The notes below the pieces were generated by a model. The model had not been told where the DNA came from, made no database searches, and saw nothing but the letters and a program-made list of their open reading frames with translations. From assembly GCA_016932595.1 (NCBI GenBank), contig JAFGCP010000309.1, forward strand, positions 1 to 39,555: a stretch of 39,555 bases of DNA, written 5' to 3'. Below are positions 12,460 through 30,690 of this stretch, one piece after another; positions within the stretch are counted from its first letter, which is position 1; each line of letters begins with the position of its first letter. The DNA is from Deltaproteobacteria bacterium (lineage in GTDB: Bacteria > Desulfobacterota > WTBG01 > CAIYCZ01 > CAIRTM01). Made by a program: the position numbers and the translations under genes.

Positions 12460-13827
12460 TCAATTGACCAGAAAAGGCCTTAAAACTTCCGAGCAGGACG
12501 ACGCTTTTATTCTCTGCAGAGCCGTTGTTTCAATCTGACGAACGCGCTCGCGTGAAATACCGAATTTTTCACCAATTTCTTCCAGTGTATGCTCTCCGTC
12601 GACGCCAAGCCCAAACCGCATGCGAAGAATTCTTTCGTCCCGGGGGGACAGACATTTGAGCATTTCTTCGGTTTCATGCTCCAGCTGATACTTGAGTACA
12701 TGCTCAATCGGCGACTGCGGCATGGTTGCCGCTATGCATTCATGCAGGTTGCTGCCATCTTCTCCAAAGGGTGTTTCCAGGGAGAGAGGATCACGTGTAA
12801 TCTGAAGAGCAAAATGAACATTGACCGTTTCATTATCGGGACCCACCACAGCGCTTTCTGCGGGCACGCGCTGCTCATCGTTTTTTGTTTCATGCAGCAG
12901 CTTTTTGATTTTATCGTTTATATACACGGGAATTCGGATCGTTGACGACTTGTCTTCTATTGCCCTGATTATGGTCTGGCGTATCCACCAGCTTGCATAG
13001 GTGCTCAGGCGGTTGCCCAGCCGGTAATCAAATTTCTCCACGGCCCTCATAAGCCCTATATTGCCTTCCTGAATCAAATCCGAAAGGGGAAGCCCTCGGG
13101 CTGCATATTTTTTTGCTATACCAACCACAAGGCGAAGATTTGCCCCTACCAGTTCATTTTTCGCTTTTTTTGCAGCTCGGTCGGCCTTCAGATACTGGCG
13201 CAGAAGCGACAGAATATTTTTTCTAGCTTTGTTTATCTTGGCGGGATTTATAAAGGGGTAGAGCTTTTTAACAGCTCCGGATTTGTACGTGCGCAGTAAA
13301 TCAAAATGCATGCACATATCATCCGTCTCAAGTACCGCTACCGCTTTTTCCCTGCAGAGCTTTTTGCTTTTGTAGTAGGTGTGTTTTTCATTTTCAAGGG
13401 TAGCCTCTACCGCCATGACGGTGCGGTGAGCCCTTTGTATTTTTTGCAGCAGATCAAGGAATTTCGTGGTGTTTTTGTCATGCGGCCCCTGTTTTGCTGA
13501 AGCGGGCGTTTTTTTCCAGTCTATAATCGTAGAAAAATTTACAGCCCACTGCCTGATGAGAGAGCGTTTTTTTTTGTCTGCTTCAGCATAAGCAATAGCC
13601 AGATCCATCTCCTTATCGCGCGACACGACAGGCCATGTTTTAATCTCATTGAGGTAGGCAGTTATAACATTTCCATGTGAGCTTTTATCGTGCAAATCCG
13701 AACCCACGGATTCTTCCGGCGCCTCTTTCTCGGTTGCACTGCACTCCTCATTCTCCACACATTCAGTTGCATCCAGCAGCATATCTTCAAAATCTTCGCC
13801 GTGTATAGCAATCTGTTTTGTATTCAT
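12460..13827 (-). CDS. Alternative RNA polymerase sigma70 factor (RpoD/RpoS-like, non-primary)
   Basis: Region 1.2 AYLNEI, region 2 [42 protein letters not shown], region 4 [15 protein letters not shown]; start 13827 (ATG) or 13836 (GTG). Confidence 0.92.
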
Positions 13828-13865
13828 AACATACACCTTTCCTTTACTGTTCGGTCTATAAATGA

Positions 13866-14482: not shown

Positions 14483-14516
14483 AAAAAAAACCCATCCTTA
14501 TCTGGATGGGCTTTTT
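14483..14516 (-). terminator. Terminator of the porD-like to nuoF-like operon
   Basis: CCCATCC/GGATGGG stem with A8 on the left (T8 on the minus strand) and T5 on the right, 17 nt after the stop. Confidence 0.85.
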
Positions 14517-14533: not shown

Positions 14534-16228
14534 TTATTTTATATATGCGACGTAGTCATCGCGGAAATGTTTCAGCGATGAGAGAACAGGTATGGGAGCT
14601 GTTTTTCCCAGTGCGCATGCTGAGGCGCTAATTATGGTTTCAGACATGTCCTGCAGCAGGGACAGGTCGTGAGCCGTTCCGCGGCCTGCAATAATTTCGT
14701 CGAGCATGGCGCACATTCTACATACACCTTCCCGGCAGGGGACGCATTTTCCGCATGATTCCTGAACGAAAAAGTCGGTCAGGTAGCGCGCTATTTTCAC
14801 CATATCCGTTGTTTCATCCATAATAACCATGCCGCCTGAACCAAGCATCGTTCCCGCGCTTTTGAGCGAATCATAGTCAACGGTGAGAGTTTCCAGGCTT
14901 GCTGGAATGACGCCTCCTGACGGGCCGCCGGTTTGTATGCTTTTGAGCTTTTTGCCGCCGTCGATACCGCCGCCGATTGTGTGTACAACATCTTTGAGCG
15001 AGGTGCCCATGGCCACTTCAATCATGCCTGCCCGGGTTATATTGCCCGAAAGGGACAGTACTTTGGTTCCTTTGCTTTTATCGCTTCCGATTTTTTTGTA
15101 CCATGCGCTGCCCTTGGCAATAATTACCGGCACATTGGCCCAGGTTTCAACATTGTTGATGCAGGTCGGCCTGGAAAAAAGGCCCTTTTCAACGGGGAAA
15201 GGAGGCCTCTGGCAGGGCTCGCCAATACGGCCCTCGATGCAGGCGATGAGCGCGGTTTCTTCTCCGCAGACAAAACGCCCGCCGCCTTCTTTAACTTTAA
15301 CCGCCATGCTGAAGGATGTTCCAAGAATATTGTCGCCGAGCAGTCCCAGTTCAGTGGCATCAGCTATGGCCTTTTGGAAGCGCTTCAGGGCTATGCGGTA
15401 ATTATCGCGGATGTACACATAGGCGGTACTGGCGCCGATGGCAAAGCCGCCGATAATGAGCCCTTCAAGCACAGAGTGCGGATCTGATTCAAGGTAGCTG
15501 CGATGCATGCCGATGCCGGGTTCTCCTTCACTGACATTGCAGATGAGGTATTTTTCCGGGCCGGCAGACTCGCGGCAGGCTTTCCACTTGAGGCCTGCAG
15601 GGAAGCCGCCGCCGCCGCGGCCGCGCAGCCCCGCATCAATAATATCCTTGATGATTGCTTCCGGCTTCATGGCAAGGGCCCTGGCAAGAGCTGCATAGCC
15701 ATCGCGAGCTATATATTCATAAATGTTTTCAGGATTGATGCTGCCGGCATTGCGCAGGATAACTTTGCGCTGCGCCTTCAGGAATTCGATATCATTGACT
15801 GACCTGACTGAAGCGCAGCCGCCTTCGTCAGCGCTGTACTGATACTTTATTTCACCCACAAGCGCATGGTCTTCACTGTCGACGCGCGCGAAAGCCATAT
15901 CCTCAACCACGCTGCCTGCTGCGACAGCATCAAGCAGCCGGTGTATATCCTGTTCTTTGACATTGCCATAAATGATTTTGGATTTGCCAGGCTGCTGAAT
16001 TTCAACGGTCGGCTCCATATGGCACAGGCCGGTGCAGCCGACTTTTGCTAGCTCGGCATTCATGTTCCGTGATTTCAGTCCGTACTCAAGCGCGCTGAGC
16101 ACCACGTCTGCGCCTTTTGCAATGCAGCAGGTTGACATGCCGACATTAATGCGCACTGTGCCGGGGAAGAGCGTTTTATTACCCTGTTCCTTTGCCTTTA
16201 CCAAATCTTCTGCCGTCTGTATTTTCAT
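14534..16228 (-). CDS. NuoF/HoxF/HydB-family NAD(P)H-binding FMN Fe-S flavoprotein
   Basis: N-terminal thioredoxin-like 2Fe-2S (TCC..GCTGLC), GLRGRGGGGFP, FVCGEETAL, INNVET, QTGGPSGG, ESCGKCVPCREG, CALG. Confidence 0.93.
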   Translation of the reverse strand: MKIQTAEDLVKAKEQGNKTLFPGTVRINVGMSTCCIAKGADVVLSALEYGLKSRNMNAELAKVGCTGLCHMEPTVEIQQPGKSKIIYGNVKEQDIHRLLDAVAAGSVVEDMAFARVDSEDHALVGEIKYQYSADEGGCASVRSVNDIEFLKAQRKVILRNAGSINPENIYEYIARDGYAALARALAMKPEAIIKDIIDAGLRGRGGGGFPAGLKWKACRESAGPEKYLICNVSEGEPGIGMHRSYLESDPHSVLEGLIIGGFAIGASTAYVYIRDNYRIALKRFQKAIADATELGLLGDNILGTSFSMAVKVKEGGGRFVCGEETALIACIEGRIGEPCQRPPFPVEKGLFSRPTCINNVETWANVPVIIAKGSAWYKKIGSDKSKGTKVLSLSGNITRAGMIEVAMGTSLKDVVHTIGGGIDGGKKLKSIQTGGPSGGVIPASLETLTVDYDSLKSAGTMLGSGGMVIMDETTDMVKIARYLTDFFVQESCGKCVPCREGVCRMCAMLDEIIAGRGTAHDLSLLQDMSETIISASACALGKTAPIPVLSSLKHFRDDYVAYIK

Positions 16229-16260
16229 TGTATTCCTCGTCAGTAACGCGGTTAATGCTC

Positions 16261-16920
16261 TTATGCAAGTGCCTCAATTTTGGCTTTTGCCTCGTCGCCC
16301 GTGTAGATTCTTCCGTCGATTTCAACGGCGGGGGAGCAGTCGCAGCAGCCCATGCACAGGGTTTTTTCCATGCTGACGGCCGGCGAAGCAGTCACTTTTT
16401 CTTCGATCTGCCGCGCAATGCCGTTTTTGTCATTGAGGTGGCAGGCCGTGCCGCAGCAGACTTTTACATGATGGCTTCCCGGGCGGGTGAGTCTGAAGGT
16501 TTTATAGAATGTCGCAACATTGTAGATGGTGCTCAAACTGATCCCTGTTTTGTTGCTTACGGCGCGCAGTGCTTCAACAGGCACATAGCCCACTTCATCC
16601 TGTATATCGTGCAGAATATACATGAGCTTATCCTGCGACGTGCCGTGCTTTTTGATGATCTCATCGATGACTTTTATGTCAAAATCGCCCAGTTCCTTGA
16701 ATTTTTTGAGAATGGCGGTTTTGAACGGATCAGGTACTATCTCCGCGACCACGGCTTTAACATGTTCCTCAAGAGCAGGGCCGCCCTGGGCTTTCTGTGC
16801 GATCACGGCAGACAGTTTTCCGCGGAATACTCCCCTCATCGCTTCAGGGACTTCGCCGAGCATGATTTCAAACATGGCTTCGCTTTTGCCTGACCAGGTT
16901 ATAGCTGTTGCCTCTGACAT
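16261..16920 (-). CDS. NuoE/HydC-family 2Fe-2S protein with an extra N-terminal helical domain
   Basis: ILHDIQDEVGYVP, VATFY, VCCGTACH, CMGCCDCSP; about 80-aa N-terminal extension. Confidence 0.9.
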   Translation of the reverse strand: MSEATAITWSGKSEAMFEIMLGEVPEAMRGVFRGKLSAVIAQKAQGGPALEEHVKAVVAEIVPDPFKTAILKKFKELGDFDIKVIDEIIKKHGTSQDKLMYILHDIQDEVGYVPVEALRAVSNKTGISLSTIYNVATFYKTFRLTRPGSHHVKVCCGTACHLNDKNGIARQIEEKVTASPAVSMEKTLCMGCCDCSPAVEIDGRIYTGDEAKAKIEALA

Positions 16921-16965
16921 ATGAAACTCCCTAGTAGTGAATTATTTTGTTTCCGCGCCTTTTGC

Positions 16966-17688
16966 TCAGAGCGTTTTTTGAGTTTTGCTTTTCAGAAGTT
17001 CAAGGTTTGCGTTGACTTCTTCCTTCAAGGCAATGATTTTTTTTGCGCTCCAGCCGGCAAAGCGGGTCTGCGCCTTCACATAGCCCTCAACCGGCTGCGG
17101 GTTCGGGTCTTCACAGGTGATTTTATAGTATCCCTGGGCTATTTCATAGAGCGGGAAAACACGGCTTTCAACAGCTTTTCTCCCGACCTTCACCGTGTTT
17201 TCAGCCTCGAATCCCCATCCTACCGGGCAGGGGCAGAGGATATGCACAAAGGCTGATCCGGCGCAGTCCCAGGCTTTGCGAATTTTATCCACAAGGTCAA
17301 AGGGATGGCTCGGGCATGCTGTAGCGCTATAGTCGCAACCGCTTGCGCTTGCCACTGCCGGAAGTTTTTTCAGCATAACGGCCGTGTCAACCCTGCCGCC
17401 TGTGCATTCATTGTCGAAACAGATATGAAGAGCGCCCTCTTTTTTAGCAATGCTCAGCAGCGCAGGCTGTGAGCCTGCCGCAATGGCGCCGGAGTTAACA
17501 ATGATGCTTTCCTCCCACGGTATCTGCCATTTGGCCTGCTCTATATTCGCGCCGCTGCCTTCCAGCGCTTTGTAGACCTGACGTACGGCAAGTGCTACGC
17601 CGCAGCCTTTGCAGGCATTGTGACCTTTGGGCCCGAAATGCTCCTTGAAAGGCAGAAACTGTGCTGCATAAAGCGTGTATGTATCCAT
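16966..17688 (-). CDS. 2-oxoacid:ferredoxin oxidoreductase beta-subunit (PorB)-like protein lacking the TPP-binding motif
   Basis: GHNACKGCG, ICFDNE, YSATACP, CPCPVGW, FPLYEI, YVKAQTRF match PorB; no GDG motif; only 240 aa. Confidence 0.85.
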   Translation of the reverse strand: MDTYTLYAAQFLPFKEHFGPKGHNACKGCGVALAVRQVYKALEGSGANIEQAKWQIPWEESIIVNSGAIAAGSQPALLSIAKKEGALHICFDNECTGGRVDTAVMLKKLPAVASASGCDYSATACPSHPFDLVDKIRKAWDCAGSAFVHILCPCPVGWGFEAENTVKVGRKAVESRVFPLYEIAQGYYKITCEDPNPQPVEGYVKAQTRFAGWSAKKIIALKEEVNANLELLKSKTQKTL

Positions 17689-17966
17689 TATTCAACCTCC
17701 TGCATGCTGACGGCGCCGAACCAGCACTCGCGATGACAGATGCCGCATCCTTTGCACAATTTGATATCAACATCATAAAACCCGTCTTCCTGCCGACTGA
17801 TGGCTGCGTCCGGGCAGTAAATATAGCAGAGTGCGCAACGCACGCACAATGTCTTGTCCCATACAGGGCCAAATTGCGGTTTGGTTCCCGGCGTATAAGG
17901 CTGCGCTTGCCCTGCTTCCAGCAATTGACAGCCCACTTTTTCCTGCTTGAATGTTTTGCTGATCAA
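17688..17966 (-). CDS. PorD-like 2x[4Fe-4S] ferredoxin subunit
   Basis: CVRCALCYIYCP and CKGCGICHREC; TTG at 17966 lies 7 nt after AAAGGAGA; stop overlaps the next start (TAATG). Confidence 0.9.
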   Translation of the reverse strand: MISKTFKQEKVGCQLLEAGQAQPYTPGTKPQFGPVWDKTLCVRCALCYIYCPDAAISRQEDGFYDVDIKLCKGCGICHRECWFGAVSMQEVE

Positions 17967-18053
17967 AGTTGGGTCTCCTTTGCGATTTTGATTGTAATTA
18001 TGCAAAATTATAGTTAATGAATGTGCTATGGCAAAGTATAAAATTAGATTGTA

Positions 18054-18082
18054 AGCTTATATTTTACCCCTTTAATTGTCAA
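18054..18082 (-). promoter_or_regulatory. Sigma70 promoter of the porD-like operon
   Basis: TTGACA-N17-TAAGCT. Confidence 0.65.
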
Positions 18083-18353
18083 GCCATTTTTGGGTTGTTT
18101 TATCCGGTGCAGGAGACTGTGCCGTAATTAAAATGAACGTTGATTCTGGTGCGTCGCCCGCGCTCCGCCACGGCTGAAAGAAGGTTGCTTGTTTTTTTAA
18201 ACAGCGCAGAAGCGAATGGTCATTTGCCCCTGCGCTGTATCAGAACTGCCTGGGCTCATTCAGCATGGGCAAAGATTATATACCTGCGATACAATCTCCT
18301 GTGACGGGTGTGATGGCCTTGAATAAAGAAACATTTTTCTGCCTGGGAGGTAT

Positions 18354-19277
18354 ATGAAAATAGTCATTGCAGGCGCCGGAGCCATGGGGTGTTTGTTCGC
18401 AGGCTTGCTTGCGGGATCCAGGCATGAGCTGTGGCTGCTTGAAAAGGATGCCGGGAAGGTGGATGCGATACGCTCTGCAGGGCTCAGCATAGAAATCAGC
18501 GGCGCTGAGCCGGCAGTCTCAATGCCCTCTATAACGGCATATGCGGGTGATGCAGGCATTGCTGATGTGCTCGTGCTGCTCGTGAAAGCATATGATACCG
18601 CAGCTGCAGTACAGGCAGCCCTGCCGGTAATCGGCCCACAGACAACGGTACTGACGCTGCAGAACGGCCTGGGCAATATCGAGGCAATCACGCGCGCTGT
18701 GCCGCAGACTTTGCTGCTTGCAGGAACCACGGCACAGGGGGCAACACTTCTTGGCAATGGCAGGGTGCGGCATGCAGGCAGGGGCGAAACGGTTATCGGG
18801 CCCCTTGTGCCGGAAGGGGCCGTGAGGGCCCATGCCGTGCAGGAGATTTTTCAGAGCGCAGGCATTCCCGCAACAGTGGCTGAAGATATTCAGCCGGTTC
18901 TTTGGGGGAAACTGCTGGTAAATGCCGGCATCAACGCGCTGACTGCAATCATGCGGGTAAAAAACGGCAGGGTAGGGGATATGGAGCCTCTGCAGGCTGT
19001 TATGCGGCGGGCTGTTGCCGAGGGGGCTGCTGTGGCGCAACGGCTGGGAATATCTTTGCCCTATCCCGATCCGGTCGTTCGAACGACGGAAATCTGTTGC
19101 GCCACGGCTGAAAATTTTTCTTCCATGTATCAGGATATCAGCTTGGGCCGGCGTACTGAAATCGATAGCATCAACGGCGTTATTGTGGAATACGCCAATC
19201 GTCTTGGCCTTCCAGTGCCGGTCAACTGCATGCTGACCCGCATGGTGCACGCTCTTGAATGCCCTTCTGTAAGCTGA
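18354..19277 (+). CDS. panE: 2-dehydropantoate 2-reductase
   Basis: GAGAMG, VKAY, LQNGLGN, WGKLLVNAGIN, SSMYQD..GRRTEIDSING; GGAGG RBS. Confidence 0.95.
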   Translation: MKIVIAGAGAMGCLFAGLLAGSRHELWLLEKDAGKVDAIRSAGLSIEISGAEPAVSMPSITAYAGDAGIADVLVLLVKAYDTAAAVQAALPVIGPQTTVLTLQNGLGNIEAITRAVPQTLLLAGTTAQGATLLGNGRVRHAGRGETVIGPLVPEGAVRAHAVQEIFQSAGIPATVAEDIQPVLWGKLLVNAGINALTAIMRVKNGRVGDMEPLQAVMRRAVAEGAAVAQRLGISLPYPDPVVRTTEICCATAENFSSMYQDISLGRRTEIDSINGVIVEYANRLGLPVPVNCMLTRMVHALECPSVS

Positions 19278-25953: not shown

Positions 25954-26264
25954 GATAGTCTCCCTGTGTGCTTATGGCTACTGCTTTTGATTAATGTGTT
26001 TTGTACTGCTACTGGTTGAACTGTATGGACTTCCTCGAAGTTCAAGTATATAAAAAAACATAATTCAACTGCATTGTCAAGGTTATTCATATCATTTTAT
26101 ACTGCAGCAGGCGCTAAAAATTCTCATGGAACATGTTGTTTTGCCGGCAGCCCCCCCTAAATGCTGTTTGCCGCAGCCGGGATGCCTGTATTTTAAGATA
26201 TGCAACTCAAAGCCAATATGTGGTATGTTTAAACACATACAGCACTCTCAAGGATAGAGCTACC

Positions 26265-28556
26265 ATGGCTAGAGAAGATGACAGGCTCCAGCGCCAGATG
26301 CGTGAGGAGCAGAAGCGGCGCAAGCGGGAACAGAGTATTATTTTCATTGCCATACCGCTTGTCATTGCCCTTACGTCGCTGTTGATGTATGTGACCGGTC
26401 GCAGCGGCGAGGCTCTTCTGCCGCAGAATATTCTTGTATTCAGCCTCATCAATCTGAATGCTATTTTGCTGCTGCTGCTGCTTTTTCTTGTCGTGCGCAA
26501 TGTTGTGAAACTTTTTTTCGAGCGCAGAAGGGGCATTTTGGGGTCGAAGCTGCGCACAAAGCTGGTCATAGCTTTTGTGGGCCTGTCACTGGTGCCGACC
26601 ATGCTTCTTTTCTGGGTGTCCATCAGTTTCATAACCAATACGATTGAAAACTGGTTCAGCTTTAAAGTTGAGAATTCTCTGGAAGAGTCCCTCACGGTCG
26701 TTGATGCCTATTACCGGAACTCGTCCTCAAAAGCGCTTCACTACGCCCACCAGATTGCAGGAAGCATCGCAGCAAAAAAAATGCTCGGCGAGCGCGCCTC
26801 GGAGCCCTTATGGACTCTGGTTGCTGAAAAACAGTCCGAGTACGACCTTGGCGTGGTCGAGATATTTTCAGCCAGCGGAGCGCAGCTGGTCAAGGTTGCC
26901 CGTGCCGATGTGCCCGAAAAGGATTTTATAGGATCAGATGCGGCGCTTGTGCAGCTGGCTCTTGAAGGCAAGGAGGTTACCCGCATTCAGCCGGTTAACG
27001 ACGGAGATATCGTTCGGGGCGTTGTCCCGGTGCGGACTGCTGGCGGCAGGCAGGAAATAATCGGCGCCGTTATTGTAAATTTTTATAATCCCAAGAGCCT
27101 TGTCATCAAAATGGACGGGATCAACCGGGCGTATCAGGAATATAAACAGCTTAAAATATCCAAGGGACCCATCAAGGGAATTTATATTATTCTGCTGTCT
27201 GCAGTGACGCTGCTGATTATTTTTTCTGCTACGTGGTTCGGATTTCACCTTTCAAAGGTTATATCCGTTCCCATCAGTTCACTCGCGACTGCGACGCAGC
27301 AGATAGCTCAGGGGAATCTGGATGTTGTGATAGAGCCGTCGTCAGACGACGAAATCGGCAGCCTGATACAGTCGTTCAATAAAATGACCCATGACCTGAA
27401 AGCCAGCACGCAGCAGGTTGAATCAACAACCGGCAACCTGCGGGAAACCATTCGCGAGCTTGAGCACCGGCGGCTGTATATGGAGGTTTTGCTTGATAAT
27501 GTCGCCTCGGTCGTTGTTTCTACCGATCAGGACGGCGTCATAACGGCATTTAATAATTCAGCGGAGCGCATGTTCGCTACCACCTTTGCGCAGGCCGTCA
27601 ACCGCCCGTACGGTGAAGTGTTTGCCCATGAAGAGCTTGCGCCGCTGCGGGATTTTATAAGCGAGGTTCTTTCCTGCCGGCTTCGATCCGTCGAGCAGCA
27701 GATAGCCCTGTCGCTTGCCGACAGGATGGTGTTTTTGTACGTGCGCTCCAATATGTTTTTTGACGCCGACGGCACAAGCATGGGGCTTGTTCTGGTTGCC
27801 GAAGACCTCACCCAGCTGCAGCAGGCGCAGCGGGCATTTGCCTGGAAGGAAGTCGCTCGCAGGATCGCCCATGAGGTGAAGAACCCGCTGACGCCGATCA
27901 AGCTTTCAGCGCAGCGTTTGAAGAAGAAGTTTCAGCATCAGATATCCTCTGACGCGGGGGTGTTTGATGAATGCACAACGGTTATCATCAATCAGGTCGA
28001 TGAACTCAAGACCATGGTCAATGAGTTTTCAAGTTTTGCCCGCATGCCGGCAACCAATCCTCTGCCCAATGAGCTCAATGAAGTAGTTGAAGAGACCCTT
28101 GCATTGTACCGTGAAGCGCATAAAACCATTGTGTTCAGCGCCGTGCGAGAACTGGAGGCAATACGGTTTAATTTTGACCGGGACCAGATCAAGCGGGTGC
28201 TTATCAATCTGCTTGACAATGCGCTGCACTCCATGGAAAATGGCGGGACAGTAACGGTCAAGACAGCATATAATCAGGCCCTTGACGTGGTGATTATCGA
28301 GGTTGCGGACACCGGCAGCGGCATCCCGCCTGCGCTTAAAACCAAAATTTTTGATCCTTATTTTTCAACAAAAAAGGCCGGCACCGGCCTTGGCCTGGCG
28401 ATCGTCAATACGATAGTGTCAGATCACAATGGATTTATTCGCGTGCGCGACAATCATCCCAACGGCGCCTGCTTCATTATTCAGCTGCCGGTGTCACCGG
28501 TTATAAGTTTCAGAAGGGAAACATATAATGAAAAATTTAACAATACTGCTGGTTGA
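26265..28556 (+). CDS. ntrY: NtrY-like membrane sensor histidine kinase (TM-HAMP-PAS-HisKA-HATPase)
   Basis: GSKLRTKLV, HAMP DEIG..FN.M, AWKEVARRIAHEVKNPLTPI, NLLDNA, DTGSG, GTGLGL; start MAREDD. Confidence 0.92.
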   Translation: MAREDDRLQRQMREEQKRRKREQSIIFIAIPLVIALTSLLMYVTGRSGEALLPQNILVFSLINLNAILLLLLLFLVVRNVVKLFFERRRGILGSKLRTKLVIAFVGLSLVPTMLLFWVSISFITNTIENWFSFKVENSLEESLTVVDAYYRNSSSKALHYAHQIAGSIAAKKMLGERASEPLWTLVAEKQSEYDLGVVEIFSASGAQLVKVARADVPEKDFIGSDAALVQLALEGKEVTRIQPVNDGDIVRGVVPVRTAGGRQEIIGAVIVNFYNPKSLVIKMDGINRAYQEYKQLKISKGPIKGIYIILLSAVTLLIIFSATWFGFHLSKVISVPISSLATATQQIAQGNLDVVIEPSSDDEIGSLIQSFNKMTHDLKASTQQVESTTGNLRETIRELEHRRLYMEVLLDNVASVVVSTDQDGVITAFNNSAERMFATTFAQAVNRPYGEVFAHEELAPLRDFISEVLSCRLRSVEQQIALSLADRMVFLYVRSNMFFDADGTSMGLVLVAEDLTQLQQAQRAFAWKEVARRIAHEVKNPLTPIKLSAQRLKKKFQHQISSDAGVFDECTTVIINQVDELKTMVNEFSSFARMPATNPLPNELNEVVEETLALYREAHKTIVFSAVRELEAIRFNFDRDQIKRVLINLLDNALHSMENGGTVTVKTAYNQALDVVIIEVADTGSGIPPALKTKIFDPYFSTKKAGTGLGLAIVNTIVSDHNGFIRVRDNHPNGACFIIQLPVSPVISFRRETYNEKFNNTAG

Positions 28557-30690
28557 CGATGAACCTTCCATTGTGAATTCGCTTCGCGGCAGTCTTGAGG
28601 ACGAAGGGCATATACTGCTTACGGCTTCTGACGGCACCCGAGCCCTCGAGATCGTGCAATCTCATCCCGTGGACATTATTTTTCTCGATATCTGGCTTCC
28701 CGGGATGGACGGCATTCAAACCCTCAAAGCTGTCAGGGATTTTGACAGTGCTATAGAAGTTGTTATGATGACCGGTCACGGCACGGTGAACACGGCGGTT
28801 CAGGCCGTCAAGCACGGCGCCTTCGATTTTCTTGAAAAACCTTTTTCGTTTGATGCTGTTGTCGATGTAATAAGAAAAATAAAAGAAAAGCAGCAGGTGT
28901 CCGGTAAAGGCTCAGCAGGATCGAAAGCAGCGGACAGCAGCGGAGAACTGCCTGATTTGTCCGGAGAGAGCGATGCCATTTTAAGGGTTATGGACCAGAT
29001 CAAAAGCGCTGCATCCGGCACAGGGCATATTCTGCTTTTGGGAGAGATCGGGACGGGTAAGGAGCATGCGGCCCAGCTGATCCACAGCGGAGCGGGATTT
29101 AAGAAAAAAACCTTTACGAAGATCAACTGCGCTTTTTTGACGCCTGCTGAGCTCGAGGCAAAACTGTTCGGCGAAAACCAGCCCGGCAGGCAGGGCCTGC
29201 TGACCGGAGGGCTTTCAGGTGTGCTTTTCCTGCAGGCGCTTGATACTGCCCCGCCCGACATGCACAAGCGGCTTGCCGACCAGCTCGGCCAGCTGCTGCA
29301 GACGGGAGAAGGCGGGCTGCGTGTCGTCGCAGCGACGATTAAAACAGCGCCTTACGGAGTTTTGAAAAAGGCCCTTGCCGAGAGCTTTCAGCATACGATA
29401 CTGCTGCCGCCCCTGCGCGAGCGCCGCAGCGATATACCCGTTATGCTCAATTCATTTCTCGCCCGGTTTTGCAGGGAATATGGCTGCAGGGAAAAGCACT
29501 TTGCTGACGAGGCTCTTGAACTTCTGGTAAACTATGATTGGCCGGGCAATGTTAAGGAACTGAAGAACCTCACTGAAAAAATGATTGTTTCGGTGCCGAC
29601 AATAACCATTTCAGCCCAGGATTTGCCCTCGACGATACGCGAAGAGGCCCATCCTGTCTTCTCCCGCTCCTATGAGCACTTCTCAAGCATGGCAGAGGCG
29701 GAAGTTGCCTGGCGCAAAAATTATCTGCTGCATCATTTGCGCAAAAACGATCGCAATCTGTCAAGGACAGCTGCCGCAATACATATCAGGGAGAAGGAGC
29801 TGAAAAAATTAATCAAAGAATACGGCATTGCTTTTGCGAAAGAAAATCCGTCAGGTAAACGCTTTCAGAGAACGCTCAAACGGGCCATGGTGGTGAGCGG
29901 GCAGGGGCTGCATTCGGGAGACAAAACAGGGCTTATTTTAACGCCGCTGCCTCCCGGCAGCGGCATAGTATTCGGCAATATTTCAAGCGAAGATACGATT
30001 CCGGCATCCATTGAGTATGTGGTGTCGACCGACTATTCAACGTGTCTGCAGAATACCAACTCAACAGCCCGCACGATAGAGCATTGCCTCGCAACGCTGC
30101 ATTCCTATCGCATCACAAATCTTATGATCAAGATCAATAATGAAGTGCCCATCATGGACGGTTCTGCCGTTGATTTTTGTAAGATGATTGAGGATGCGGG
30201 TATTGAAGAGCAGGATGCTCCTGCCGATGACATCGTCCTTACCGAAAAATTTGTTATCGGTGACGTCGATGGCTCTAAAAAATACATGATAGTCGAGCCG
30301 GCGGAGCGATTTTCAATTCATTATATGCTGCAGTACCCAAAACCGGTCGGCCGGCAGGAATACACCTTTATCATGAACGACGAGGAATCCTTTAAGAAGG
30401 AGATTGCTCCGGCGCGCACATTCGGCTTTTTACGCGATATTGAGGCGCTTCAGGAGCGGGGGTTGGCAAGCGGCGGCAAGCTCAATAATTTTATTCTTAT
30501 CGACAATGAGAAGATTGTGAACACCGAGCTCCGGTTTCCCGATGAATTTGTGCGGCATAAAATTCTAGACATGATAGGAGACTTTTATTTGCTGGGCCGC
30601 CCCATCCGCGCACGGATAACTGCAAATATGACAGGGCATACCGACAATACAACGATGGTTCGTATGATTCGAGACCGCATGCATCTCTGA
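28528..30690 (+). CDS. lpxC: Fusion protein: NtrX-like REC + degenerate AAA+ + HTH joined to UDP-3-O-acyl-GlcNAc deacetylase LpxC
   Basis: REC (LVDDE, FLDIWLPGMDG, EKP); WPGNVKEL; from about 29866 QRTL..GQGLHSG, TIEH, EVPIMDGSA, IAPARTFGF, DEFVRHKILD, GH; single uninterrupted ORF. Confidence 0.93.
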   Translation: MKNLTILLVDDEPSIVNSLRGSLEDEGHILLTASDGTRALEIVQSHPVDIIFLDIWLPGMDGIQTLKAVRDFDSAIEVVMMTGHGTVNTAVQAVKHGAFDFLEKPFSFDAVVDVIRKIKEKQQVSGKGSAGSKAADSSGELPDLSGESDAILRVMDQIKSAASGTGHILLLGEIGTGKEHAAQLIHSGAGFKKKTFTKINCAFLTPAELEAKLFGENQPGRQGLLTGGLSGVLFLQALDTAPPDMHKRLADQLGQLLQTGEGGLRVVAATIKTAPYGVLKKALAESFQHTILLPPLRERRSDIPVMLNSFLARFCREYGCREKHFADEALELLVNYDWPGNVKELKNLTEKMIVSVPTITISAQDLPSTIREEAHPVFSRSYEHFSSMAEAEVAWRKNYLLHHLRKNDRNLSRTAAAIHIREKELKKLIKEYGIAFAKENPSGKRFQRTLKRAMVVSGQGLHSGDKTGLILTPLPPGSGIVFGNISSEDTIPASIEYVVSTDYSTCLQNTNSTARTIEHCLATLHSYRITNLMIKINNEVPIMDGSAVDFCKMIEDAGIEEQDAPADDIVLTEKFVIGDVDGSKKYMIVEPAERFSIHYMLQYPKPVGRQEYTFIMNDEESFKKEIAPARTFGFLRDIEALQERGLASGGKLNNFILIDNEKIVNTELRFPDEFVRHKILDMIGDFYLLGRPIRARITANMTGHTDNTTMVRMIRDRMHL

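Follow-up and report, generated by a model that had tools for sequence, protein, structure and literature searches.

A four-gene operon of PorD-, PorB-, NuoE- and NuoF-like proteins as a candidate NAD(H)-linked iron-sulfur wire in an uncultured class of Thermodesulfobacteriota

The stretch of DNA analysed here (the window; 39,555 nucleotides, contig JAFGCP010000309.1 of the Deltaproteobacteria bacterium assembly GCA_016932595.1) carries on its minus strand four co-directional open reading frames (ORFs) for a PorD-like, a short PorB-like, a NuoE-like and a NuoF-like protein (gene order D-B-E-F). To judge by the sequences compared, this operon is a conserved, lineage-specific variant of the Bfu/Por-Bfu theme, working either as a simple wire or in a new bifurcating layout. 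We see an even chance that it encodes a soluble four-subunit flavo-iron-sulfur complex, a remnant of Por-Bfu in which electrons pass between NAD(H) and a low-potential iron-sulfur (Fe-S) partner. The Bfu core is defined by flavin mononucleotide (FMN) together with clusters B1-B5 and C1 (Schut et al. 2022, PMC9304861), and Por-Bfu is the predicted, uncharacterised PorCDAB plus BfuCBA enzyme of Dehalococcoidia (PMC9304861). As the sequences show, the losses comprise PorA, PorC, the thiamine pyrophosphate (TPP) site of PorB and, in BfuB, the B2-site ligands and the B3/B4 domain. Four cysteines of the PorB-like protein, the 2x[4Fe-4S] motifs of PorD and the FMN/NADH motifs, B1 site and N-terminal [2Fe-2S] domain of BfuB are kept.

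The PorD-like protein scored 71.6 bits against the PorD/KorD family model TIGR02179 (cut-off 60.05) and has two CxxCxxCxxxC motifs, whose eight cysteines are invariant when it is compared with two PorDs. The PorB-like protein matched the NCBIfam PorB model over its C-terminal part only, with 130 bits against a cut-off of 405, and a Pfam scan gave no match to it at all, including the TPP-binding domain PF02775. It was aligned with the canonical PorB of its own genome (contig C357; C, L and G numbers are our labels for own-genome contigs, loci and genomes) and 17 relatives. Neither the window protein nor any of the 18 aligned short relatives has the GDG...DIG TPP-binding loop, and the window protein is ~60-70 residues shorter than the beta subunits of 2-oxoacid:ferredoxin oxidoreductases. 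Of the canonical proximal-cluster cysteines the short form retains the CxxC pair (C26, C29) and the one in PCP (C154), but lacks the third, at the 'ATGC' position. Across operons C26, C90 and C154 are present in 39/39 rows and C29 in 35/39. C90 could be the replacement for the missing 'ATGC' cysteine, and from its conservation we infer that the PorB-like protein binds an Fe-S cluster.

An AlphaFold2 model of the PorB-like protein, built on the relatives' alignment, reached a predicted local distance difference test (pLDDT) of 82 and a predicted template modelling (pTM) score of 0.84. Its top Foldseek matches were beta subunits of pyruvate:ferredoxin and oxalate oxidoreductases, 9bt4_C and 5exe_C (E ~3e-11, TM 0.56, ~175 aligned columns). 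On alignment and model together we read the protein not as a PorB but as a PorB fold cut down to an Fe-S scaffold. A protein search with it returned 118 matches, 115 of them short forms (136-267 residues) without a Pfam domain; fused proteins of more than 420 residues were absent at E <= 1e-10, which is weak evidence. Several of the short matches carry the source label 'pyruvate ferredoxin oxidoreductase beta subunit', and genes of the short type so labelled cannot encode that enzyme. With the four-subunit 2-oxoacid:ferredoxin oxidoreductases (the pyruvate enzyme of M. acetivorans, 9bt4; the oxalate oxidoreductase of M. thermoacetica, 5exe) the window operon shares the beta-subunit fold, the CxxC and PCP cysteines and a PorD above the family cut-off, but its PorB-like protein lacks the TPP motif and one cluster cysteine and has no alpha or gamma partners.

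The NuoF-like protein matched PF01512 (E 2e-41), PF10589 (E 2e-29) and an N-terminal thioredoxin-like 2Fe-2S domain, with no C-terminal Fer4 domain in the Pfam scan. Against the complex-I NuoF equivalog TIGR01959 it scored 463.7 bits, under the cut-off of 558.65. Among solved structures the best matches came from bifurcating enzymes, namely from their B subunits NfnB (9n5u_B, E 2e-160) and, in A. mobile, HydB (7t2r_B, E 5e-160), and the match to these subunits (E ~1e-160) covers residues 27-564. The B2 ligands of the A. mobile subunit are C438, C476, H525, C531 and C536 (PMC9304861). The first three align to D475, I513 and Y562 of the window protein, which ends at K564, ahead of C531, C536 and the entire B3/B4 domain; this end aligns to residue 527 of the 597-residue A. 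mobile subunit. In most Bfu enzymes the B2 position is a Zn site, and B3/B4 form the presumed ferredoxin-reducing domain (PMC12318220). Among the related operons of types I-III described below, the C438 position is occupied by Asp or Asn in 41/41 rows and the C-terminal ferredoxin domain is lacking in 40/40 judgeable rows, one further row being cut by a contig end. The initial annotation, made from the letters of this DNA, had rightly described the NuoF-like protein as missing a C-terminal 2x[4Fe-4S] domain.

What remains of the BfuBC core is well conserved. The B1 cysteines C492, C495, C498 and C538 are present in 39/39 rows, the N-terminal [2Fe-2S] cysteines of the NuoF-like proteins in 33-39 of 39 and the NuoE-like cysteines in 34-38 of 39. 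Compared with the solved BfuBC cores (NfnABC 9n5u, A. mobile NiFe-HydABCSL 7t2r, WorABCSL 9mqx), the window pair has the FMN/NADH site, B1, the N-terminal [2Fe-2S] (B5) and the BfuC, or NuoE-type, [2Fe-2S] (C1); it differs in that the NuoF-like protein stops where the ferredoxin-binding C-terminal domain with 2x[4Fe-4S] (B3, B4) would start and has D475, I513 and Y562 in place of the B2-site ligands. By its alignment the NuoF-like protein is a trimmed BfuB. Non-bifurcating NuoEF modules (S. wolfei hydrogenase, R. capsulatus formate dehydrogenase and NAD-reducing hydrogenase, as treated in PMC9304861) likewise have no B2, B3 or B4, but the window protein keeps the N-terminal B5, is closer in sequence to true Bfu and is joined to Por-type Fe-S proteins rather than to a catalytic subunit. 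The type 4, BfuA-less Bfu enzymes, for example the predicted Rub-Bfu (PMC9304861), resemble the operon in having a BfuBC-like pair, no BfuA and unrelated subunits attached; unlike it, the Rub-Bfu type, as that paper presents it, keeps the full BfuB cofactor set and a recognisable catalytic partner, rubrerythrin.

The NuoE-like protein has an N-terminal extension, modelled as four helices. This extension is a repeat of ~80 residues ('W..G...F...VPE.MR...'), of which the window protein has one copy and most relatives have two. Pfam gave only a sub-threshold match to DUF2621, a PCP_red lead scored 0.79, below the counting level, and no solved relative was found; both assignments were set aside as below threshold. 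In the type III loci L063, L065, L067 and L070 the NuoE [2Fe-2S] cysteines are lost and the NuoF-like proteins are ~100 residues longer. The NuoF-like gene, and sometimes the NuoE-like gene, is broken into two or three overlapping ORFs in L016 (9461-11157), L037, L047, L054 and L066; these splits are probably assembly frameshift errors and not pseudogenes.

A scan with one genome per species gave 80 loci, of which 55 hold a short PorB-like gene. Complete D-B-E-F sets were found in 49 of the 55, and the other six are cut by contig ends; counted singly, the PorD-like gene is present in 54, the NuoE-like in 54 and the NuoF-like in 50. In the fetched flanks of these loci PorA and PorC were found in 0/55, and their neighbour clusters contain no nuo genes. 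The proposal that the four genes form a self-contained, conserved unit without a substrate-converting subunit is thus borne out by its recurrence. Type I, to which the window belongs, consists of D-B-E-F alone, in many cases with PanE-like and sigma-factor genes on its flanks as in the window. In type II the four are joined by a BfuA-like protein of ~311 residues, which has [2Fe-2S], several [4Fe-4S] and no catalytic domain. Type III has this protein too and, besides it, a 430-460-residue flavin adenine dinucleotide (FAD) protein distantly related to geranylgeranyl reductases. A BfuA-like gene is present in 29/55 loci and a reductase-like gene in 21/55. A fourth, rarer type stands behind a MarR gene (L057, L062, L064, L066 and own-genome contig C15). 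In L064, where the NuoF-like protein is intact, the full BfuB C-terminus is retained alongside the PorD/PorB-like pair.

The other 25 loci, mostly from metagenome-assembled genomes of Chloroflexota/Dehalococcoidia, contain canonical PorC-D-A-B, followed directly, in most of the loci uncut by a contig end, by NuoE, a NuoF of ~620 residues and a BfuA-like protein of ~242 residues. Their BfuBs have the His/Cys motif and the cysteine of the C438 position in 10/11 rows and, in nine of those ten, a ferredoxin domain after the motif; the remaining one, L076, stops just past it. By gene content and order this cluster is the Por-Bfu predicted in PMC9304861. The window operon has homologues of its PorD, PorB, BfuC (NuoE) and BfuB (NuoF), arranged relative to one another as they are there, and the short PorB-like proteins branch beside or within the Por-Bfu PorBs. 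It differs from Por-Bfu in lacking PorA, PorC, the TPP loop of PorB, BfuA, and the B2-site ligands and B3/B4 of BfuB, and in the additional N-terminal helical domain of its NuoE. In the literature covered, with subscription papers outside the coverage, we found no description of a TPP-less PorB/PorD pair with NuoEF, and the term Por-Bfu turned up in just two papers.

FastTree trees were built for the NuoF-like proteins (53 rows) and the PorB-like proteins (83 rows). Types I, II and III each form a clade in both trees with support of 99-100, and the four genes have therefore been duplicated and have stayed linked as modules. All short PorB-like proteins fall into a single clade with support of 96, which has the MarR type and the PorBs of Por-Bfu as its neighbours; the deeper branching of both trees is weakly supported. 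These trees are consistent with derivation of the four-gene module from a Por-Bfu-like ancestor, and we claim no further direction of descent.

Comparison with the ortholog in L017 gave ratios of nonsynonymous to synonymous substitution (dN/dS) of 0.149 for the PorB-like, 0.118 for the NuoE-like and 0.086 for the NuoF-like gene; on these values the three genes are under purifying selection. The short PorB-like gene was found in 21/21 genomes of the window's order (12/12 genera), and in most cases there were two or three copies. Of 401 sampled genomes of the phylum 13 contain it, all of one class, namely all 12 genomes of three families and the window's own genome; in this sample it was found in 0/1 genomes of the class's fourth family and nowhere else. 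All these genomes are drafts, and an absence means that the gene was not found in those searched. The initial annotation had considered that the combination might be unique to this genome with selection relaxed, or might reflect a recent deletion of porA/porC, with both still in place in relatives. Neither is the case. The combination occurs throughout the order with dN/dS of 0.09-0.15, the short PorB-like family is old, and the relatives that have both porA and porC are in Chloroflexota, where they represent the likely ancestral form and not a state from which the window operon recently decayed.

The window's own genome is a draft of 460 contigs that is 76% complete. A second PorD/PorB-like-NuoE-NuoF module was found on contig C15, after six tandem reductase-like genes and the MarR gene. 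Two proteins encoded 5' of that module (291 and 196 residues) matched nothing in Pfam or NCBIfam and did not resemble PorA or PorC by BLASTP; they were not accepted as remnants of these subunits. Fragments of NuoF-BfuA-like-reductase arrays lie at the ends of contigs C39, C263 and C326. FAD reductase-like proteins of 430-460 residues are encoded at 22 places in the genome (locus L014 at C15 6846-15228, and 14 other contigs), six of them in tandem on C15 and four cut by contig ends. They score 70-88 bits with TIGR02032, under its cut-off, and their best solved match, 3oz2_A, covers the FAD-binding N-terminus only. A stand-alone BfuA-like gene on contig C452 (6098-7066, L097) encodes a 322-residue polyferredoxin with Fer2_4 and several 4Fe-4S motifs, whose best solved match is the 247-residue G-like subunit 9mqx_A. 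Orthologs with 66-93% identity were found in 5/5 relatives searched, never near PorB-like or NuoEF genes. The neighbours of the stand-alone gene are housekeeping genes (amidases) and give no hint of a partner. In the loci on contigs C447 (14864-24846, L096) and C263 (L099) a 214-residue protein consisting of the NuoF C-terminal 4Fe-4S region only lies beside a 707-residue Fer2_4, GltD-like and Nqo3-like protein. Further along, two FAD_binding_4 proteins and a CCG-domain protein stand between or beside BfuA-like and reductase-like genes.

In the reading that we favour, the four proteins would assemble into one soluble complex. NADH would reduce FMN, and electrons would then enter the NuoF and NuoE Fe-S clusters and pass by way of the PorB-like [4Fe-4S] cluster to the two PorD-like clusters. 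At the outer PorD cluster ferredoxin or a different Fe-S protein would dock, as in pyruvate oxidoreductase, and electrons could travel this path either way. Because the paralogous operons attach a BfuA-like polyferredoxin and a FAD reductase, the family as a whole probably feeds electrons from NADH to geranylgeranyl-reductase-like FAD enzymes. The type I copy of the window, the one that is conserved universally but has no BfuA-like and reductase genes, would use partners encoded in trans or serve as a ferredoxin:NAD+ link; candidate partners are ferredoxin, the BfuA-like protein encoded alone on C452 and some among the 22 paralogous reductases. By the published criterion, under which all bifurcating members have B2-B5 (PMC9304861), the module should not bifurcate in the known way.

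Several points weigh against the wire. The canonical set of four cluster cysteines in PorB is short of one here, and a cluster is presumed on the strength of the conservation of C90. Physical contact between the Por-like and the Nuo-like proteins is a prediction of this reading, and no fused forms were found, which is weak evidence. In a search for RNA evidence no RNA run was listed as containing the operon, and four runs contain ~0.05 of the sampled words. Electron transfer from NADH to ferredoxin alone is uphill, and a simple two-substrate enzyme could therefore only run from ferredoxin to NAD+. The stand-alone BfuA-like gene, for a candidate partner, lies among housekeeping genes and lacks informative neighbours. 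Rnf was found in 3/5 relatives searched and the module in all five, so the module is no replacement for Rnf; Rnf was not found in the window's own, 76% complete genome. With no either/or pattern between the two systems, we rejected such a replacement.

It is possible, if rather unlikely, that the operon is a new electron-bifurcating core. The PorB-like and PorD-like clusters would then replace in trans the lost low-potential arm of BfuB (B2 site, B3, B4) and reduce ferredoxin, and the BfuA-like protein would carry the other electron to a high-potential acceptor, for instance a geranylgeranyl-reductase-like enzyme; in the case of the window operon this protein and the acceptor would be encoded elsewhere. 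When NADH reduces a C=C bond, enough free energy is released to drive the reduction of ferredoxin, as established for EtfAB-type enzymes, which counts for such a core. Furthermore, loss of the B2 ligands and the C-terminus accompanies the short PorB/PorD pair in all 40 judgeable rows, whereas the Chloroflexota BfuBs mostly keep both (motif 10/11, domain 9/10). Three cofactor sites lost (the B2 site, which is [2Fe-2S] or Zn, and B3 and B4) are set against up to three [4Fe-4S] gained, and the presumed bifurcation parts FMN, B1, B5 and C1, as described in PMC12318220, are all retained. However, every true Bfu keeps B2-B5 by the definition in PMC9304861 and the window protein does not, and only a single electron exit is visible in the window operon. 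The L064-type operon has a complete BfuB in addition to the PorD/PorB-like pair, so the pair is no simple substitute. The suggestion in the initial annotation that the PorD-like protein stands in for the missing NuoF domain is accordingly left divided: the 40 rows without the domain, and the Chloroflexota BfuBs that keep it, speak for it, but L064 has both.

That annotation had also proposed an adaptor, docking onto a separately encoded, complete 2-oxoacid:ferredoxin oxidoreductase and passing its electrons to NAD+. We consider this improbable. The module is descended from, or sister to, Por-linked Bfu systems, and a search for por loci elsewhere in the own genome found canonical porCDAB without NuoEF on C357 and another 2-oxoacid oxidoreductase on C238. 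A complete oxidoreductase, however, already has its own beta and delta subunits and offers no obvious docking role to a second, TPP-less pair; neither PorA nor PorC occurs in the flanks of any of the 55 loci; and where an enzyme is attached (21/55 loci) it is a geranylgeranyl-reductase-family flavoprotein. The specific link to a separately encoded 2-oxoacid oxidoreductase thus found no support. Very improbable, in our view, is an NADH-input module for a membrane-bound complex-I-like enzyme without NuoEFG, with three Por-type clusters in place of the NuoG chain. Relative G015 does have a Nuo-like operon without NuoE, F and G in the 18 kb examined, but the Nuo operon of G020 has its own NuoE, NuoF and NuoG and that genome still carries three PorB-like modules, G008 (98% complete) carries the module with no NuoH match, and the operon is never beside nuo genes in the 55 loci. 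The chance that the operon is a decaying, functionless remnant is next to negligible. Although the catalytic parts of both parent enzymes are missing, the low dN/dS, the intact frames, the presence of the gene in all 21 genomes of the order, the invariant cofactor cysteines and the conserved upstream element and ribosome-binding sites all argue against decay.

The features of the operon are listed in Table 1.

Table 1. Positions of the operon's genes and signals in the window
Feature	Position	Strand	Basis and remarks
Upstream element TTGACA-N17-TAAGCT	18054..18082	-	-35 TTGACA 18082-18077, -10 TAAGCT 18059-18054; read directly
Alternative sigma-70-like site TTGCCA-N16-TATAAT	18007..18034	-	Promoter scan, 11/12 matches
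PorD-like 2x[4Fe-4S] protein, 92 residues from most likely start TTG 17966	17688..17966	-	Listed ORF extends to 18005
Short PorB-like protein, 240 residues, putative single [4Fe-4S] site	16966..17688	-	PorB alignment, cysteine conservation, AlphaFold2 model
NuoE/BfuC-like [2Fe-2S] protein, 219 residues	16261..16920	-	PF01257 E 3e-33; 84-residue helical N-terminal extension
NuoF/BfuB-like flavoprotein, 564 residues	14534..16228	-	PF01512, PF10589; N-terminal 2Fe-2S domain, FMN/NADH site, B1 [4Fe-4S]
Intrinsic terminator	14483..14510	-	7-bp GC-rich stem, 6-nt loop, T8

The boundaries claimed in the initial annotation were found in the sequence as described. The upstream element TTGACA-N17-TAAGCT lies within ~50 nt that have the same sequence in the window and in two relatives, L016 and L017. 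Its -10 is weak, agreeing with TATAAT at 3/6 positions only, and the element is hence unlisted by the consensus scan. The two relatives share the TATAAT of the alternative site, but not its -35. With 8 promoter-like matches the region shows no excess over shuffles (5.1, standard deviation 2.5). The ~50 nt 5' of the operon (window 18040-18095, minus strand) are better conserved among the window, L016 and L017 than the surrounding coding DNA, and this block could be an operator or a promoter common with the divergent PanE-like gene (18354-19277). The terminator reads CCCATCC-AGATAA-GGATGGG (14510-14491) followed by T8 (14490-14483), and the terminator scan found the same hairpin. The PorD-like and PorB-like genes meet in a TAATG stop/start overlap, and the remaining two spacers, of 45 nt and 32 nt, each contain a ribosome-binding site. 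The PorD-like gene most likely starts at the TTG behind AAAGGAGA, which gives the same length as in relatives; this start is preferred to the one at 18005 because a 2-nt indel in L017 disrupts the longer frame and the relatives begin at 17966.

Of the window's other long ORFs 27 were scanned, and none was a gene of PorA, PorC, hydrogenase, formate dehydrogenase or NuoG type, in agreement with the annotation, or any other nuo gene. These ORFs encode housekeeping and regulatory proteins (DnaK, DnaB, L9, a sigma factor, PanE, MnmE, YidC, TatC, DnaJ, RNase Y and others). Twelve loci have the PanE-like gene, of the ketopantoate-reductase family (plus strand in the window), next to the operon, and eight have the sigma-70-family gene (window 12460-13836, minus strand) there. 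This recurrence may be a matter of conserved synteny or of a functional tie to a 2-oxoacid reductase. Elsewhere in the window, at 28528-30690 on the plus strand, a 720-residue ORF unites three parts: a receiver of the response-regulator type, a sigma-54-type AAA domain that includes the lid and, at residues 447-714, a complete LpxC deacetylase domain. The ORF directly follows an NtrY-like histidine kinase gene (26133-28556) and may be a genuine fusion or two genes joined through an assembly error.

The Bfu cofactor set has been held to be invariant. Here a whole lineage has a Bfu-like core without its ferredoxin arm, together with TPP-less parts of a pyruvate oxidoreductase, and the module is in this sense a natural experiment on which cofactors NADH-ferredoxin coupling needs. 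It is also an example of a catalytic subunit, PorB, reduced to an Fe-S scaffold. If the doubtful bifurcating layout were nevertheless the right one, the TPP-less PorB/PorD pair would be a ferredoxin arm transplanted onto a Bfu core, a bifurcation architecture not seen before. This uncultured Thermodesulfobacteriota class would then couple NADH-driven C=C reduction by geranylgeranyl-reductase-like enzymes (22 copies here) to ferredoxin reduction in several paralogous versions, with the window operon as their shared constitutive core. Given its universal presence in an uncultured order and its ties to an FAD reductase family of unusual size, the module is probably central to the energy or the lipid/isoprenoid metabolism of this lineage.

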